Source: a virus
Taxonomy: Duplodnaviria; Heunggongvirae; Uroviricota; Caudoviricetes
Direction: 5' to 3' (one strand)
Length of the DNA stretch: 64,000 nt
Virus record (IMG/VR): IMGVR_UViG_3300024270_000052
Shown: positions 1,801 to 62,808 of the stretch, piece by piece
Numbering within the stretch: position 1 is the first letter of the stretch
How the letters are laid out: each line of letters begins with the position of its first letter
The notes under the pieces: model-generated
Told to the model about the DNA's origin: nothing
Database searches by the model: none
What the model saw: the letters and a program-made list of their open reading frames with translations, nothing else
Made by a program: the position numbers and the translations under genes

Positions 1801-1842
1801 ATTTCTATATATATTATATCATATTTTTTTATAAAAATCAAA
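1801..1842 (-). promoter_or_regulatory. conserved sigma70-type promoter cassette (copy 1)
   Basis: Plus-strand 'tttctatatatattatatcatatttttttataaaaatcaa'. On the minus strand: -35 TTGATT (1836-41), 17-nt spacer, extended -10 TGATATAAT (1813-21). Confidence 0.6.
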
Positions 1843-1844
1843 AA

Positions 1845-1864
1845 GGGAAGATTTTATTCTTCCC
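1845..1864 (-). terminator. rho-independent terminator
   Basis: GGGAAG..(8)..CTTCCC stem followed by a T-run on the minus strand; fused to promoter copy 1. Confidence 0.5.
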
Positions 1865-2684
1865 TTACAAAATATTCATATGCTTTTAAAGCATTTGTTT
1901 TTCTTACAGAATAATAAGCAGAATTGCAACGTTCATAACTTTTAGCAAAAGCTAGTGCTACTTCTTGAGCATCTTGTAATGCTAAAAACTTTTCATATGA
2001 AAAATCTTTTTGATAAGCGCGCCCAAAAGTATTAATTTCATATTCAATAGTATCTCTTAAAAAATCACATTGCTCTTGTAAACTTCCACCCACAATAGAA
2101 CTATAATATGTGGTATTCCATTGGCACATTCCATAATGAACTTTGCCACCATATAGCCAATATTGAATATCTAAAGTATTACCTCCAACTTCAGCCATTA
2201 TATTTCCTAAAATACCAGCAATTACATAATTATTATATCCTAAATTTTTTAAATATAACCAAATTTCTGTTGCTACTGGATAATCTGTTTTTCTTTCTAA
2301 CCAGAAATTATAATCATTTGTATATTTAGTATATAATTCATGTGCTTCTTCCCATTCTCTTTTGGCTAATTGAATAATTAAATGATTATCTTCATATCTA
2401 AGAGCCCGAGCCATTTCTGCCATTTGATGAGCAATTTCTTTTTTATCCTGATAGTAAGAAATTTTTGTTGTTAAAATTTCTAAATCATCGGTTTCAATAT
2501 ATTCATGTGGAATAGTTTTTTCTGTTGAATATACTGGTTCACATTCTTCAGCCGGTACATCAGCTACACAAGTTGAAACTGGTGATAATATAATTGGTTC
2601 ATCAGCTTTAATTAAAGTAGTATTTGGATTTATGTGAAAGAAAATAGATAAAGTTAAAGTGAATACAATAATATATTTTTTCAT
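1854..2684 (-). CDS. secreted protein with lysozyme-like domain (putative peptidoglycan hydrolase)
   Basis: Likely start at internal Met (MKKYIIVFTLTLSIFFHINP, signal-peptide-like). Motif 'AGILGNIMAEVGG...GMCQWN' resembles phage tail-lysozyme / lysozyme-like families and the N-terminal domain of ORF 22390..23063. The call rests on motif resemblance only. Confidence 0.4.
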   Translation of the reverse strand: MKKYIIVFTLTLSIFFHINPNTTLIKADEPIILSPVSTCVADVPAEECEPVYSTEKTIPHEYIETDDLEILTTKISYYQDKKEIAHQMAEMARALRYEDNHLIIQLAKREWEEAHELYTKYTNDYNFWLERKTDYPVATEIWLYLKNLGYNNYVIAGILGNIMAEVGGNTLDIQYWLYGGKVHYGMCQWNTTYYSSIVGGSLQEQCDFLRDTIEYEINTFGRAYQKDFSYEKFLALQDAQEVALAFAKSYERCNSAYYSVRKTNALKAYEYFVREE

Positions 2685-2722
2685 AATTTTTCTCCTAATA
2701 TTTCTATTAGGTCTATCGTGTT

Positions 2723-3067
2723 TTAAAAATAGTATGTTTGTTTTCCTGTAATTTCGTAATCTTCTATAATAATTTGCGGACTTACAATACCATTCCAAAT
2801 ATTTCGCTCGCATTTGCCAACGATATTAATTGTTACACAACCTAAATTAGAATATAAAGATTCATATTCTTCTTTAGACGACCTGAATTTAATTAAACTC
2901 ATCCCATTTGGAAGTGTAATCTTTAGAGTAGGATTTTTATCTTCAGACATTAACTTTAAATTTTCATTATTAATTTTAATATTTTCAATCGCAATTAATG
3001 GTTCTTCTACTCCTTGACCCCAAATTGTTTTTAAGTTGGCTAATTCTAAAACATCATTAACATTCAT
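2723..3067 (-). CDS. hypothetical protein (114 aa)
   Basis: Track ORF directly downstream of the DHH gene on the same strand. May be a separate OB-like accessory protein. Confidence 0.35.
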   Translation of the reverse strand: MNVNDVLELANLKTIWGQGVEEPLIAIENIKINNENLKLMSEDKNPTLKITLPNGMSLIKFRSSKEEYESLYSNLGCVTINIVGKCERNIWNGIVSPQIIIEDYEITGKQTYYF

Positions 3068-4467
3068 GTCATTATGATTAAAAATATAATCAACTTTATA
3101 ACAGGGATAAACTCAAAATCCTTTAAATTATCATTAGCATATTCAATAAACTTATCAATTCTATCATTTGTAAAAGCGCATCCAAAGGCTTGAGCATGAC
3201 CTTCCGCAAATTCGTCAAGATGGCTTGATATAATAAATTCTCTAAAATTATCAAATTTAGAATTACTTAAACCTCTACCAGAACCTTCCCAAGAATTATC
3301 ATCTTGTTCATTTAAAAGTAATACTGGCTTTTGATATTTAGACATTAATTGATTTGCGATTAAGCCTGTTAAATTCTTATCAATAGAATATTTTTTTGGT
3401 AATTGAATTACTAAAATTTTATTTTTTAAAAGATTTTGTTCTTGAATGAGATTTTCAATTATTTCCAAGCTCGTGTCTCTTGCTTTAGTTTGTCTATTTT
3501 TAATATTAGAGCAATTACGACAAGCTTGTTCTACCCTTGTCTCTGTTTGACCTTGACATCCACGCTTAGTTGAAGAAATCATTTTATAACCTAAATGGTC
3601 TAACATAGATTCAAATAGAATTAGCTTTTCATTTTGCGTGCCAACCCGAATGGTTGCGTTGACATAAGGAGCAATATAAAAAGCTATACCGAATGGTGTT
3701 AACTCACCTTTTAATGAAAAGGCTTGTTTATCTACCATTCCTTTAAAAAATGGATTACGAACTTGTTTAATACCACATCTAATTAAATGTGTAGTTTCAA
3801 AATCTCGTAAATCCATCATATCTGCTACCATACCAAGAGCAACTAAATCAAGAAATTGATTAGCATAATCTACATCTAAAAGTTCATCAATATATGAACA
3901 AAATTTATAAACCATACCAACACCAGACAGTGATTTTGTAGGATAATCACATAGTTGATTATTAATTACGCAGGCATCTTCACATTCATATTCAGCTTCA
4001 TGATGGTCAATAACTAATACATCTATATTTTTAGATTTTAATTCTTTACATTCATCATAGCTATTGGAACTAGAATCTGGAGCAATAACTAATTTAATGT
4101 TATTAGTAATAGTTTCTGGAATTATACCATGCTGTTTTCCAGTATGTAATCTATAGTAGATATGATTTGACACAAAAGATGGAAATAAACAATTTAAATA
4201 GTTTATAAGAGCGGCAGCGCTTGTGAAGCCATCAGCATCACTATCTACTTGAATCATTATATCATCATTTTGTGCTATATGTTTAATAAGCATTTTAGCT
4301 CCATTATTAATATTTTTAATTAAAGAAGGAGATAAAATGTCATTATCAGTTGTATTGAGGTAATGCTATACCTCTGCCAGAGGAATTCCTCTATTTGTTA
4401 ATACTCTCTATACCGCAGTTAATTTTATTTTTTGTGGAATAGATGAATCTATAAGCTTATATTCCAT
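3064..4467 (-). CDS. DHH-family phosphoesterase (RecJ/NrnA-like) with two in-frame TAG codons
   Basis: DHH motif 'VIDHHEAEYE' and DHHA1-like 'AEGHAQAFG'. The ATG at 4467 is in frame with the track ORF through CTA at 4408-4410 and 4366-4368 (N-terminus MEYKLIDSSIPQKIKLTAV(TAG)RVLTNRGIPLAEV(TAG)HYLNTTDNDILSPS...). Confidence 0.65.
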
Positions 4468-61117: not shown

Positions 61118-61143
61118 ATTTAATTTAGTTATAAATAATAAAA

Positions 61144-61170
61144 GGGAGAATACTTTTAAAGTATTCTCCC
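61144..61170 (+). terminator. strong rho-independent terminator closing the plus-strand block
   Basis: gggagaatacttttaaagtattctccc followed by T8. Confidence 0.6.
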
Positions 61171-61179
61171 TTATTTTTT

Positions 61180-62697
61180 TTACTGAATTACAGCATATCT
61201 ATCTGCATCAAGTACTTCATACATCAAATCAAAAGCAGTCTTGCCGCTAAGCAGCTGCTTAAAAATAGAAGGACTCATACCAGATACAAAAGATACACCG
61301 TTCTTAACACGCATAGGAATGTTATCCTGTCTCGCCTGAACATTCCAGAATACCAAATTAGGCATCTTATATTCAGCCGCATTCCACTTCTTCTCAATGT
61401 TTTCCATAAGAGTAGAAGTGTCATTATCTGCTCTAAGTCTATTAGAGTAGCTATAATAACATCCACGAGCCTGGTCAAATTCCATGTCAGAGATAATCAA
61501 AACGTTCTGCGGCAGGTCTTCCTGACTACACTTATTCTGAATTGCGGTGTTAAGCAGCAAATCAAAAGTGGCTTCAATATTCGTATTATCAATAAGATTA
61601 GTATCATAGATACGTCTTACCTTATCTACAAAATCGGCACCATCAGTCTTAATAAGCTGCGGTCTAGACGCAAAGGAAATATAGTGTCCAGCAAAAGGGC
61701 CGTGAGCGCGCTCAGCGCAGTAAAGCGCAAGAGAAATCGCTACATTGATAGGCGCAGAAGCATCGCCACCAGTCATAGAACCAGAAGTATCAGCAACTAC
61801 AATACCATTAAAAGTAGCATCCTTGAAATAATCTTCAAGATTTTCCCAATACTTATTCACCATAAGGCGATTAGTATCATTAAGATTATATCTGTAACAC
61901 TTCAGAGCTTCCGCAACGCACTCATAAGGATAAAGTACTTTGGCATTTACCTTAGTAGTAGTATCCCTAGCGAAATCCGCATAAGTCTGTACATTCTTCT
62001 CACTCTTGGCACGTTCTACATCATGTCTTGCGAAAGCATTCTTGTAAATCATACCTGCGCGAGAAGGAATCTTGTCAAACTCAATTTCGTCCCACTTGTT
62101 TGCAGACATAAGTCTTTCAAGCACATTAATGCGCTCACGAAGAATAGAAAGAGTCTTTCTATACTGCTTATGAGTCATATTAAATGCGGCTCTGGTCTTA
62201 TTAGCAAGAATACGAGATTCCACAGAAGAAGTATTTTCAGACTTCAGCCACTTTGCGAGCAAAGAAGGAGTCTTACACTGAACATCAAGTGCCAGCTGTT
62301 CCTTCATAAAAGCAAACGTTTCCTTTTCAAGAGGAGTACCTACAAAAAGATACAAATCATCCCATCTACCGTAAAGAGGAATGTGCTTAAGATTGCGGCG
62401 AGCTGCCTCAGTCTTACAATCCGCAAGCCACTTCATAGCAACACGGAAGAAGCGTCTTTCGCCCTGACCACCACGCGCATCACGCAGATAGAAAAGGCAC
62501 TTCAGCGCATAGACTTCATTTTCTTCAAAAGCCTTCTTAAAAAGATTGATTACATCTACATCAGGACGCTTACGATATGCGCCACCCATAGCAAAAAGGT
62601 CAAGAAGACCAGATTCAGTCGTCTTATGAGTAAGTGCGCCATTTTCAGTATGAGTAAAGTTAGTTACCTTAGCAAGTCCAGTCATAAAAGTATTCAT
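61180..62697 (-). CDS. vWA-domain protein (MIDAS 'VVADTSGSMTG'), possibly Ro60/TROVE-like
   Basis: 505 aa, C-terminal von Willebrand A domain with DxSxS MIDAS. The N-terminal 300 aa are unassigned. Higher GC than the phage average. Confidence 0.45.
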   Translation of the reverse strand: MNTFMTGLAKVTNFTHTENGALTHKTTESGLLDLFAMGGAYRKRPDVDVINLFKKAFEENEVYALKCLFYLRDARGGQGERRFFRVAMKWLADCKTEAARRNLKHIPLYGRWDDLYLFVGTPLEKETFAFMKEQLALDVQCKTPSLLAKWLKSENTSSVESRILANKTRAAFNMTHKQYRKTLSILRERINVLERLMSANKWDEIEFDKIPSRAGMIYKNAFARHDVERAKSEKNVQTYADFARDTTTKVNAKVLYPYECVAEALKCYRYNLNDTNRLMVNKYWENLEDYFKDATFNGIVVADTSGSMTGGDASAPINVAISLALYCAERAHGPFAGHYISFASRPQLIKTDGADFVDKVRRIYDTNLIDNTNIEATFDLLLNTAIQNKCSQEDLPQNVLIISDMEFDQARGCYYSYSNRLRADNDTSTLMENIEKKWNAAEYKMPNLVFWNVQARQDNIPMRVKNGVSFVSGMSPSIFKQLLSGKTAFDLMYEVLDADRYAVIQ

Positions 62698-62765
62698 ATT
62701 TTATTTCTCCTTTTTCTCTTTGTTCCCTCTTGGACAAGAGGGATTTTATTTTTTATCTTTTTTAA

Positions 62766-62808
62766 TTTTCTATATATATTATATCATATTTTTTTAAAAA
62801 TGTCAATT
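62766..62808 (-). promoter_or_regulatory. promoter cassette copy (-35 TTGACA) upstream of the vWA gene
   Basis: 'ttttctatatatattatatcatatttttttaaaaatgtcaa', preceded by hairpin ccctcttggacaagaggg. Confidence 0.55.

Follow-up and report, generated by a model that had tools for sequence, protein, structure and literature searches.

The early promoters of phage T5 (e.g. PN25) and of the Bacillus phage SPO1 are promoter families of virulent phages that are read by host RNA polymerase. They are near-consensus and A/T-rich, have conserved spacers and initial transcribed regions and outcompete host promoters for the host holoenzyme at the start of infection. To our knowledge, neither fusion to terminators nor conservation over a wide GC range has been described as a feature of these early families. 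T4-like myoviruses possess the PeSL (promoter-early stem-loop), a composite terminator/promoter motif (Arbiol et al. 2010, PMC2839356; Comeau et al. 2014, PMC4122927). In the Bacillus phage SPbeta, the repeated operator SPBRE of the master repressor MrpR is present at ~10 promoters (PMC10516654).

Here, we analysed a 64,000-nt stretch of DNA (the window) from a large, uncultivated phage of Firmicutes from gut or rumen, which carries a family of repeated promoter cassettes. By analogy, the PeSL element appears to be their closest described counterpart. In both cases, a stem-loop adjoins a near-consensus sigma-70-type promoter (-35, N17, -10) with a Shine-Dalgarno site and a start codon downstream, and many highly similar copies per genome occupy non-structural regions but are absent from structural blocks. 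Copies also mark the borders of gene modules shuffled among relatives, and some copies are degraded or arranged in tandem. In contrast to PeSLs, the present cassettes belong to a Gram-positive-type host lineage, as reflected by TRTGn, and to a phage clade unrelated to the T4-likes; their hairpin, present at only about half of the copies, overlaps the -35 element, with the T-tract of -35 and spacer as putative terminator tail; spacer, discriminator and leader are conserved clade-wide; and tRNA genes are driven as well. The T5 and SPO1 early families share with the cassettes the multiplicity of near-consensus, A/T-rich promoters with conserved spacers and initial transcribed regions, but are experimentally defined, whereas the present family is predicted.

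A probable promoter family heading non-structural operons

A motif search over the whole window revealed 19 near-identical promoter copies, all on the minus strand, the first at ~1796-1866 and the last at 62761-62806. The repeat family is real and far exceeds chance by each pattern used: the 32-nt core yielded 12 sites at three or fewer mismatches (0 expected), the 19-nt core 17 sites (0.74 expected) and the anchor-only pattern TTGA-N16-TG-N-TATAAT 18 sites, again all on the minus strand (0.10 expected). One copy (15437-15465), in which TT replaces TG, is missed by the anchor pattern and brings the total to 19. Two members are looser, one with another spacer (25145-25173) and one with another spacer and discriminator (13158-13186). 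Each copy lies between genes or runs a few bases into a stop codon, and each has the same direction as the genes. Hence, the original prediction of about 19 copies between 1801 and 62808 in a single orientation holds.

Alignment of the copies gives the consensus TTGAyw-17 bp-TATAAT with a TRTG extended -10 element. The 17-bp spacer and a perfect TATAAT are found in every copy and the TG extension in 18 of 19, which agrees with their earlier description as near-perfect sigma70 promoters. The spacer is a T-tract/A-tract, the discriminator consists of A/T only, and the purine-rich leader of ~30 nt terminates in a Shine-Dalgarno site. In most copies, 29-42 nt separate the predicted start from the ATG, which is preceded by the Shine-Dalgarno site. 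A 17-bp spacer, an extended -10 element and an A/T discriminator stabilize open complexes, and Gram-positive promoters typically carry the TRTGn -16 motif (PMC3113569 and its references 53-54). The cassettes with the genes that each is predicted to drive, the related loci (L numbers) with orthologous copies, and two terminator hairpins that lack a family promoter are as follows:

1796..1866, minus strand: cassette 1; hairpin 1866..1843 (dG -11.8), -35 TTGATT at 1841, TATAAT end at 1813, leader to ~1796; drives 1414..1773 and downstream genes
8161..8230, minus strand: cassette 2; hairpin 8230..8205 overlaps first TT of -35 (8206), -10 TGGTATAAT; drives YorH-like gene 7612..8142, then DnaB, primase-like and RecJ-like genes; orthologous in L039, L010, L002, L015
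10589..10634, minus strand: cassette 3; no hairpin, -35 overlaps stop codon of 10635..11459; drives winged-helix regulator-like gene 10214..10561, then YorF-like and AAA_24 genes; orthologous in L010, L002
13141..13186, minus strand: cassette 4; looser member TTGACA-17-TGGTATAAT, spacer and discriminator differ; drives 12811..13080, followed by terminator 12795..12771; orthologous in L039, L010, L002
13394..13439, minus strand: cassette 5; TTGACT, weak A/T-rich hairpin only; drives 13176..13379
15420..15493, minus strand: cassette 6; hairpin 15493..15466 (dG -15.7), -35 TTGATA at 15465, TT instead of TG before TATAAT; drives NAD-dependent DNA ligase gene 13451..15403
20608..20653, minus strand: cassette 7; TTGACA, no hairpin, A/T-rich leader of 119 nt; drives RNase H, GyrB and GyrA genes
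20953..21038, minus strand: cassette 8; hairpin 21038..21013 (dG -15.4) with its own T-run, then TTGACT at 20998; drives 20661..20945
25128..25173, minus strand: cassette 9; weak member, -35, TG-10 and discriminator kept, spacer differs; drives 24675..25109 through PhoH-like gene 23108..24388
28328..28373, minus strand: cassette 10; TTGAAA, no hairpin, overlaps end of 28370..29053; drives 28092..28307 and following genes
29338..29415, minus strand: cassette 11; hairpin 29415..29385 (dG -18.7) overlaps -35 TTGATT at 29383
34681..34756, minus strand: cassette 12; hairpin 34756..34725 overlaps -35 at 34726; drives 10-gene unit including Macro, NAPRTase, NAD synthase and NADAR genes
37549..37619, minus strand: cassette 13; hairpin 37619..37597 (dG -13.1), -35 at 37594; drives Thg1-like, isochorismatase and cytidylyltransferase genes
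43161..43206, minus strand: cassette 14; downstream member of tandem pair, only 3' half of hairpin kept; drives small winged-helix-like gene 42903..43145 and a 9-10-gene unit including an RNA ligase gene
43257..43335, minus strand: cassette 15; upstream member of tandem pair, hairpin 43335..43304 (dG -14.7), Shine-Dalgarno site degraded, no ORF before cassette 14
45776..45866, minus strand: cassette 16; hairpin 45866..45835 (dG -19.2) with its own T-run, then TTGATT at 45821; drives 45236..45757 and three further genes
51251..51296, minus strand: cassette 17; TTGAAA; drives MVP-like gene 48761..51223; orthologous in L003, L046, L082
51582..51627, minus strand: cassette 18; TTGAAA, at divergent junction with plus-strand fibre block; drives 51293..51523, a T7 Gp5.9-like gene
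62761..62806, minus strand: cassette 19; TTGACA, 78-nt leader with hairpin; drives DUF2828/DUF7788 gene 61180..62697; orthologous in L082
23084..23109, minus strand: terminator hairpin without family promoter, ahead of amidase/lysozyme-like gene 21432..23054
48725..48755, minus strand: terminator hairpin without family promoter, between MVP-like gene and tail genes 45893..48638 (minus strand)

The 19 copies serve ~85 minus-strand genes and head units of 1-10 genes with replication, nucleotide/NAD, RNA-repair and other non-structural functions, rather than each gene or gene pair as originally proposed; only just past the right end of the window are copies as dense as about one for each small gene or tRNA group. 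The cassettes just outside the window head tRNA genes, including an amber suppressor tRNA(CTA). TAG is recoded as a sense codon in this phage. The amidase/lysozyme-like gene contains 11 in-frame TAG codons, the MVP-like gene carries one at codon 5, and the suppressor tRNA is itself driven by a cassette.

As had been noted before, the motif search found no copy in the plus-strand fibre block (51768-61117). The cassette is likewise absent from the two minus-strand tail genes and the amidase gene in the window, which sit behind cassette-less terminators; the one at 48725..48755 presumably marks a cassette-less, late unit. Without the cassette, these presumably late genes (fibres, tail, lysin) must rely on another signal.

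Predicted terminator fusion, conservation and the reading as host promoters

A GC hairpin with a dG of -12 to -19 kcal/mol abuts nine of the 19 copies in the window, and where present, its stem terminates inside or at the -35 element. GC-rich hairpins in front of the promoters had thus been recognized correctly, but 'usually' overstated their frequency, and the proposal of an insulated promoter for nearly every gene overestimated both copy number and the terminator-bearing share. Across the clade, an abutting GC hairpin is found at 83 of 310 promoters as compared to 13 of 310 for control windows placed 70 nt upstream, counts that are ascertainment-biased, as the related loci were fetched by motif match, with the fetched copies themselves left out of the profiles. 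Hairpins are linked to the -35 hexamer, occurring at 71 of 131 TTGATT promoters but at 12 of 179 others (Fisher p=4e-21). The 3' end of the stem peaks at -2 to +2 of the -35 element, and some stems contain the entire TTGATT. The T-rich stretch TTGATTTTT, comprising -35 and spacer, would accordingly be the U-tract of a predicted upstream terminator.

Copies occupy the same junctions in relatives that share no more than 40-65% identity in the flanking proteins, and orthologous copies partly share site-specific variants, which contradicts the earlier suggestion of recent spread. Copies are still present in relatives whose GC content reaches 46%, and relatives with a GC content of 40% or more retain the A/T-rich spacer and discriminator. 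In an alignment of orthologous intergenic regions, only the -35, TRTG-10 and discriminator elements are conserved; the hairpin arms at an orthologous junction differ in sequence while pairing is kept. All recovered strains of the phage itself are 100% identical. The copies are best read as old, vertically inherited and under purifying selection across a clade of large TAG-recoded Bacillota phages.

A Firmicutes-type host, already proposed earlier, is favoured by the TRTGn motif, by a Shine-Dalgarno core upstream of 84% of the genes, by the assignment of 16 of 20 motif-holding metagenome bins to Bacillota, by the best cultured DnaB relatives, which are from Bacillus, Enterococcus and Staphylococcus phages, and by the collinearity of the replication module with SPbeta yorE-yorL.

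We consider it probable, at roughly 80%, that the copies are strong promoters for the host primary sigma factor (sigma-A/sigma-70 type) that head non-structural operons, about half of them fused to intrinsic terminators. Each copy would be recognized by host RNA polymerase containing this factor and joins every feature known for fast, stable open complexes, i.e. TTGAyw, 17 bp, TRTGn, TATAAT and an A/T discriminator. Transcription is predicted to start at a purine 7-8 nt downstream of the -10 element, producing an unstructured, purine-rich leader of ~30 nt up to the Shine-Dalgarno site, and the units would be expressed at early or middle times. In about half of the copies, the GC stem at or inside the -35 element together with the TTGATTTTT U-tract may terminate the upstream unit. 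Because the stem ends at -35 and TTGATTTTT would double as U-tract, a single segment of ~70 bp could terminate one transcript and initiate the next.

Operator, recombination module or phage-specific promoter

The spacer A-tract, the discriminator and the leader are conserved beyond the known needs of sigma-A contacts alone, which may mean that another factor uses part of the motif. Conceivably, the extra positions, i.e. the palindromic TTTTTATAAAAA spacer and the ATATATAG discriminator, bind a phage regulator that switches the whole regulon on or off in concert, which would add to the promoter reading rather than replace it. We rate this as unlikely but worth considering; an activator or repressor site overlapping the promoter is possible. 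The consensus has a perfect 12-bp palindrome as its spacer core, both spacer and discriminator stay conserved clade-wide whatever the genome GC, and three small winged-helix proteins are each encoded by the first gene behind a cassette (10214..10561, a PHROG transcriptional regulator; 12811..13080; and 42903..43145, with a weak MarR match). Moreover, in some relatives, a second class of promoters shares the -35 and -10 but has a GC-containing spacer and discriminator, which hints at differential regulation that a plain strong-promoter model leaves unexplained. SPBRE provides a precedent as a short conserved element repeated at the promoters of ~10 operons in a large Firmicutes phage: yorE-yorL is collinear with 1854..10561 of the window, and PyorE, which is under SPBRE/MrpR control, occupies the same syntenic position as cassette 3. 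However, SPBRE is a 15-bp repressor site of a temperate phage, separate from the RNA polymerase elements, and SPbeta 85-134 kb contains no strict member of the cassette family in a motif search. Unlike SPbeta with its MrpR, the window has no recognizable MrpR-like or other repressor gene, integrase gene or other lysogeny gene. In addition, the T-tract is already accounted for as terminator U-tract and the A/T discriminator by open-complex stability, and the position of the T-tract/A-tract junction varies by 1-2 bp among copies and among genomes (TTTTTATAAAAAAA, TTTTTTATAAAAAA, TTTTTTTAAAAAAA), so that a compositional or structural requirement fits better than a fixed operator.

It appears improbable that the cassettes are above all PeSL-like recombination modules, whose near-identity is kept by homologous exchange between co-infecting relatives and not by transcription; by analogy with PeSLs, a role in recombination is a candidate. 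Gene order in the auxiliary-gene region varies among relatives, with cassettes at the module borders, and three cassettes lie within 300 nt in L109. The tandem pair 43257-43335/43161-43206, a partial duplication with half a hairpin and no ORF in between, resembles the 'degraded' PeSLs (PMC4122927). Yet the cassette positions in the replication module are stably orthologous across deep divergence, and no breakpoint was placed at a cassette at nucleotide resolution. The derived discriminator ATATTTATAT is common to three of the seven orthologous copies at the one aligned junction, that of cassette 2 (the copies of the window, L002 and L015), and the discriminator in L005 is near-identical (ATATTAATAT), which argues against frequent homogenization.

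We regard a promoter read by a sigma factor or RNA polymerase of the phage itself as highly improbable, even though conservation extends well past a minimal promoter, many large phages bring a transcription machinery of their own, and the examined part comprises 64 kb plus ~19 kb of flank from a genome of >100 kb. Phage sigma factors and RNA polymerases characteristically read other signals, as known for SPO1 gp28 and gp33/34, T4 gp55 and the phiKZ and AR9 polymerases, whereas the present motif, with TRTGn and a spacing of exactly 17 bp, is the canonical consensus of primary sigma factors, making a dedicated phage sigma factor unneeded. The original suggestion of such a factor also finds no support in the proteins, as neither ~75 proteins of the window nor the precomputed Pfam lists for the flanks included a Sigma70 or RNA polymerase match.

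With host sigma-A promoters as the preferred reading, we regard the cassettes as a new, clear-cut instance of a phage design that is already known and not as a new kind of element.

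Cassette copies and the genes they head

Within the window, the pattern TTGA-N16-TG-N-TATAAT, which is confined to positions contacted by RNA polymerase, was found at 18 sites as compared to 0.10 expected, and all 18 are located on the minus strand. One further copy, in which TT replaces TG (15437-15465), brings the total to 19. The original prediction of about 19 copies in a single orientation is thus borne out, and a position-weight scan of the plus strand of the window returned no copy. The 32-nt core of the consensus proposed there is matched with at most three mismatches by 12 sites (0 expected in the window) and a 19-nt core by 17 sites (0.74 expected). 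The minus-strand consensus reads TTGATTTTTATAAAAAAATATGATATAATATATATAGAAAATAA, and seven copies show identity over at least 41 nt. A chance or low-complexity artefact was ruled out by the site numbers (18 observed versus 0.1 expected), the restriction to one strand and the intergenic location of all sites.

All 19 copies contain a -35 element starting with TTGA, a spacer of exactly 17 bp and a perfect TATAAT, as expected for recognition by a primary sigma factor and in line with the earlier reading as a sigma70 promoter. The dinucleotide TG at -15/-14, which defines an extended -10 element, is present in 18 of 19 copies, and 16 carry TATG. The predicted start lies 7-8 nt after TATAAT, and in most copies an ATG with an AAGGAG-like sequence follows 29-42 nt downstream. 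The motif thus combines a near-consensus -35, an exact 17-bp spacer, a TRTGn extended -10, a perfect -10 and an A/T discriminator. In the literature, features of this type (17-bp spacer, extended -10, A/T discriminator) are tied to open-complex stability and to loss of iNTP/stringent-type control, and TRTGn is described as typical of promoters in Bacillus and other Gram-positive bacteria (PMC3113569; Voskuil and Chambliss papers cited there).

To place the copies relative to genes, TAG was treated as a sense codon in gene calling, since many obvious genes are broken up by TAG codons in frame and coverage by ORFs of 100 aa or more is then 89% instead of 75%. The minus strand encodes the genes from 1 to ~51600 and those from 61180 onwards, and the plus strand the block between 51768 and 61117. 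On this map, each of the 19 copies lies between genes, in some cases with an overlap of a few bases with a stop codon, and is co-directional with the genes. Cassette starts are spaced about 1 kb to 6 kb apart. The units they head comprise 1 to 10 genes each, about 85 genes in all, and are thus larger than the single genes or gene pairs previously proposed. There is a clear split between these units and the cassette-less fibre, tail and lysin genes:

Genes behind cassettes and cassette-less genes
Behind cassettes: DnaB, primase-like, RecJ-like, GyrA, GyrB, NAD-dependent ligase and RNase H genes
Behind cassettes: PhoH, NAPRTase, NAD synthase, NADAR and Macro-domain genes
Behind cassettes: Thg1-like and RNA ligase genes
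Behind cassettes: genes for SPFH/flotillin-like proteins, phosphoesterases, an MVP-like protein and a DUF2828 protein
Behind cassettes: three small winged-helix genes
51768 to 61117, plus strand: fibre block (PHROG tail-fibre matches), cassette-less
45893..48638, minus strand: two tail genes, cassette-less, behind terminator 48755..48725
21432..23054, minus strand: amidase/lysozyme-like gene with 11 in-frame TAG, cassette-less, behind terminator 23109..23084

Upstream of the fibre, tail and lysin genes, the search for a shared late-promoter motif yielded only A/T words such as ATATAAAA, which are indistinguishable from composition in this genome of 29% GC.

Taken together, the cassettes form a genuine and well-defined element family with functional coherence; in kind the family is ordinary, as phage terminator-promoter cassettes and strong early promoters are known. 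We consider it probable (roughly 0.8) that the cassettes are strong host sigma-A promoters heading non-late transcription units, half of them fused to the preceding intrinsic terminator. From the sequence, we infer start sites, termination and timing of cassette transcription. Host sigma-A would initiate at an A or G located 7-8 nt past each TATAAT, and upstream transcripts would end inside TTGATTTTT, after the nine hairpins described below.

Several genes behind cassettes deserve mention in their own right. The small winged-helix-type proteins encoded at 10214..10561(-), 12811..13080(-) and 42903..43145(-) are each the first gene product behind a cassette. The first is a PHROG 'transcriptional regulator' and the third a weak MarR match; the second gene exceeds its surroundings in GC content, and a strong bidirectional terminator (12771..12795) lies behind it. 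All three are candidate regulators of a late-gene switch. The MVP-shoulder/vault-repeat protein (48761..51223(-)), which is accompanied by two more SPFH/flotillin-like proteins (25286..26749(-) and 38044..38991(-)), is kept at 58-71% identity in many relatives. The DUF2828/DUF7788 gene (61180..62697) has a 78-nt leader with a GC hairpin, CCCTCTTGTCCAAGAGGG (62724..62743), between cassette and Shine-Dalgarno sequence. This hairpin has no Rfam match, and the leaders of the other copies are short and unstructured. An Rfam gathering search of the window matched no known RNA family, so the conserved leaders do not correspond to a described riboswitch or leader. Finally, a GIY-YIG/NUMOD3 homing-endonuclease gene is inserted in the DNA polymerase III alpha gene, splitting it into two ORFs (11688..16748 of L112, the left flank from the same strain), and a second GIY-YIG protein is encoded in the window at 11766..12305.

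Overlap of the -35 element with predicted upstream terminators

The cassettes had been described as usually abutted by a GC-rich terminator hairpin. Such a GC-containing hairpin ends at or just inside the -35 in 9 of 19 copies, with dG values of -11.8 to -19.2 kcal/mol and a U-rich tail as in intrinsic terminators, and the remaining 10 copies have none; the hairpin itself is thus confirmed, while 'usually' is too strong. The sequence following the stem is the promoter itself, as in ...CTTCCCTT continued by TTTGATTTTTAT.

The association was also assessed in a non-redundant set of 310 anchor-matching promoters, taken from the window and from related contigs. Here, an abutting GC hairpin is found at 83 promoters, as compared to 13 for a control window shifted upstream by another 70 nt. 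Its presence is strongly associated with the -35 hexamer, at 71 of 131 TTGATT promoters versus 12 of 179 promoters with any other hexamer (Fisher p=4e-21). The 3' end of the stem peaks between -2 and +2 from the first T of the -35, and several stems enclose the whole TTGATT, paired with AATCAA. Judged by sequence, the T-rich -35 and spacer double as the putative U-tract of the upstream terminator, a dual use that explains part of the 'extra' conservation of the cassette.

Conservation among relatives, host and recoding

The exact 41-mer occurs in four IMG/VR contigs, whereas a 25-mer from the -10 region recovered 87 viral-contig stretches, many of 100-400 kb and with local GC from 23% to 46%. 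The same 25-mer is present in 20 contigs of metagenome bins, 16 of which are labelled Bacillota. Homologues of window proteins are encoded in five or more of these 20 stretches, and dense promoter arrays occur in many of them, indicating that at least some are binned phage contigs. No paper containing the motif string was retrieved in the literature search. Comparison of window positions 30-52 kb with cultured phages by megablast gave no match, so there is no close cultured relative of this region. For the NAD ligase, no close relative was confirmed in a search of viral contigs; the motif proved the productive search key instead.

The relatives are ~65-74% identical to the window in coding DNA and 40-65% in protein, and yet the same replication-module junctions are occupied in four of them (L039, L010, L002, L015), namely upstream of the YorH-like gene, the yorE-position gene, 12811..13080, 13176..13379 and the ligase gene. 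Conservation extends to the promoters of the MVP-like and DUF2828 genes. The suggestion of recent spread therefore does not hold; the copies are old and selected. In an alignment of the intergenic region orthologous to cassette 2 (8161..8230), the conserved columns are the -35, the TRTG-10 and the discriminator only. Co-varying between orthologues, the hairpin arms differ wholly in sequence, yet pairing is kept (dG -12 to -15 in five genomes). At this junction, a derived ATATTTATAT replaces ATATATATAG in three of seven orthologous copies (window, L002 and L015), and L005 has the near-identical ATATTAATAT. This shared, site-specific derived state favours vertical descent over homogenisation. 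Likeness of copies within versus between genomes is 0.58 vs 0.55 overall and 0.74 vs 0.61 for the window, a modest difference that is confounded by several promoter classes per genome. Homogenisation by concerted evolution was rejected as the main cause, as the same consensus is found in at least eight different contigs. Loci with at least 40% GC still carry an A/T-rich spacer and discriminator in a profile by GC class that left out the copies used to fetch the loci, and hence these segments are not a by-product of base composition.

In some higher-GC relatives, including L027, L016, L028 and L087, a second dense promoter class is seen, which has the same -35 and TG-10 and a GC-containing spacer and discriminator, e.g. 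TTGACAAAnCCCnCAAAGTGTGCTATAAT. Both classes coexist in one genome and may represent separate temporal or regulatory classes.

A Firmicutes-type host, as argued originally, is supported by TRTGn, Shine-Dalgarno use, the Bacillota bins, the cultured DnaB relatives and collinearity with SPbeta. A Shine-Dalgarno core precedes 84% of genes versus 5% of random positions, a comparison that is somewhat circular since ribosome-binding sites guided the choice of starts. Among cultured phages, the best DnaB relatives come from those of Bacillus, Geobacillus, Enterococcus and Staphylococcus (~39% identity). The replication module (1854..10561(-)) together with the left flank L112 is collinear with yorE-yorL of Bacillus phage SPbeta, in the order yorE-position winged-helix gene, YorF, AAA_24/Sak4-like, YorH, DnaB, primase-like, RecJ-like DHH and DNA pol III alpha. 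Between yorG and yorH, at the exact counterpart of the cassette 2 position, a stem-loop is annotated in SPbeta. The left flank also encodes an anaerobic ribonucleotide reductase, which fits an anaerobe of gut or rumen as host.

TAG serves as a sense codon throughout the window, e.g. in 21432..23054(-), 53822..56353(+), 58219..60471(+), 7612..8142(-) and 48761..51223(-), with a density per 1000 codons of 5.1 in fibre, tail and lysin genes versus 1.8 elsewhere. In the YorH-like gene, TAG follows the CxxC motif at the same position in two relatives, and E or K is aligned in others. Two first-in-operon genes have an early in-frame TAG, at codon 5 of the MVP-like gene (48761..51223(-)) and at codon 13 of the YorH-like gene (7612..8142(-)). 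These near-start codons could gate translation of both genes on the supply of suppressor tRNA despite the strong promoter.

A tRNA scan found none in the window; a cluster lies just outside. At least 22 contigs of the same strain were recovered, one of which (L109) reaches 8.7 kb (1..8697) beyond the right end and carries seven more cassettes interleaved with 14 tRNA genes. Among these is the amber suppressor tRNA(CTA) at L109 7401-7495, which has a cassette -35 located 109 nt upstream. It is 95 nt long, lacks an encoded CCA and has a variable region of unusual length. In four other large phage contigs (L009, L040, L058, L075) a promoter of the family is found 87-89 nt upstream of tRNA(CTA), and in a fifth locus (L011) the 25-mer match lies directly upstream of it. 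On the other side, an additional cassette precedes the DNA polymerase III alpha gene in L112. A preprint on stop-codon recoding describes large Firmicutes phages from cattle, the 'Agate' clade, of ~154 kb, and makes no mention of promoters.

Competing explanations and known systems

An overlapping operator, by which a regulator would also read the cassette, appears unlikely, albeit the better placed of the competing explanations. It would account for the palindromic spacer core TTTTTATAAAAA, for the three winged-helix genes each lying first behind a cassette and for relatives with two promoter classes sharing -35 and -10, and SPbeta offers a precedent in its repeat SPBRE, the operator of the master repressor MrpR. 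However, the T/A junction and the position of the palindrome drift by 1-2 bp, simpler explanations exist for T-tract and discriminator, and no MrpR-like protein was seen in the window. What the cassette shares with SPBRE is the repeat at promoters. A more far-reaching proposal is similarly doubtful: the clade-wide spacer, discriminator and leader would form a regulatory code, read by a phage winged-helix protein or tuned past host growth-state control. It would make a single regulon of the amber-suppressor tRNA and the early genes, with the code switch of these TAG-recoded phages running on host sigma-A from the first minute of infection and the terminator/-35 overlap selected as minimal insulator and portable recombination joint.

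Even less probable is that a recombination joint resembling the promoter-early stem-loop (PeSL) of T4-like phages is the main cause of the cassettes. In the auxiliary region, distant relatives have their modules in different orders and carry cassettes at the module borders, and the pair 43257-43335/43161-43206 is a partial duplication including half a hairpin. All recovered strains are identical, and breakpoints could therefore not be mapped; the four recovered contigs of the phage show 100% identity and no strain microdiversity at the cassettes. Recombination as a side effect is plausible. The two cassettes in 43139..43345(-) lie 96 bp apart with no ORF between them, the upstream copy having a degraded Shine-Dalgarno sequence. 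At L109 6126-6470, three copies occur within 300 nt, and only a tRNA-Thr gene separates the second from the third. Tandem cassettes may be gene-loss scars or deliberate promoter stacking. A dedicated phage sigma factor, as suggested originally, or a phage RNA polymerase is very improbable, given that the consensus is canonical and not distinct from that of the host primary sigma and that neither the ~75 window proteins nor the precomputed annotations of ~19 kb of flank contained a domain of a sigma factor or RNA polymerase.

Promoters read by host sigma-A thus remain the preferred explanation, and obvious analogues exist in the T5 and SPO1 families of early promoters. Functionally closest is PeSL, which joins a stem-loop, a sigma-70-like early promoter and a Shine-Dalgarno sequence and is repeated in non-structural regions (PMC2839356, PMC4122927). 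Its layout of stem-loop, promoter, Shine-Dalgarno sequence and start (PMC4122927) is found in about half the cassettes, the rest being promoter-only. The distribution is also PeSL-like: the fibre block has no cassette, none precedes the tail and lysin genes, and the density is highest in the small-ORF/tRNA region right of the window. PeSL belongs to T4-like myoviruses of Gram-negative hosts, whereas the window phage has an SPbeta-like replication module and its nearest cultured relatives are Firmicutes phages. The cassette is therefore an analogue of PeSL and not a homologous member. In contrast to PeSL, its terminator physically overlaps the -35, its extended -10 is of Gram-positive type, spacer and discriminator are conserved clade-wide, and copies also drive tRNA genes. 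SPbeta 85-134 kb contains no match to the strict motif.

The cassettes provide a ready transcription-unit map for an uncultivated clade of large TAG-recoded phages of gut/rumen Bacillota. The 25-mer is a simple and specific search key, as its 87 viral-contig stretches illustrate, and together with TRTGn and Shine-Dalgarno use it supports a Bacillota host. With a length of ~70 bp, the overlapping terminator/-35 forms a small natural insulator, which could be of use for synthetic biology in Gram-positive bacteria. No new principle of transcription emerges; of note are the neat design of the overlap and a link that is useful for the study of recoding in the clade. The location of tRNA(CTA) behind a host-type promoter, here and in several other large phage contigs, predicts early synthesis of the suppressor by host polymerase. 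This prediction is relevant to the published idea that late and lytic gene expression is delayed by recoding.
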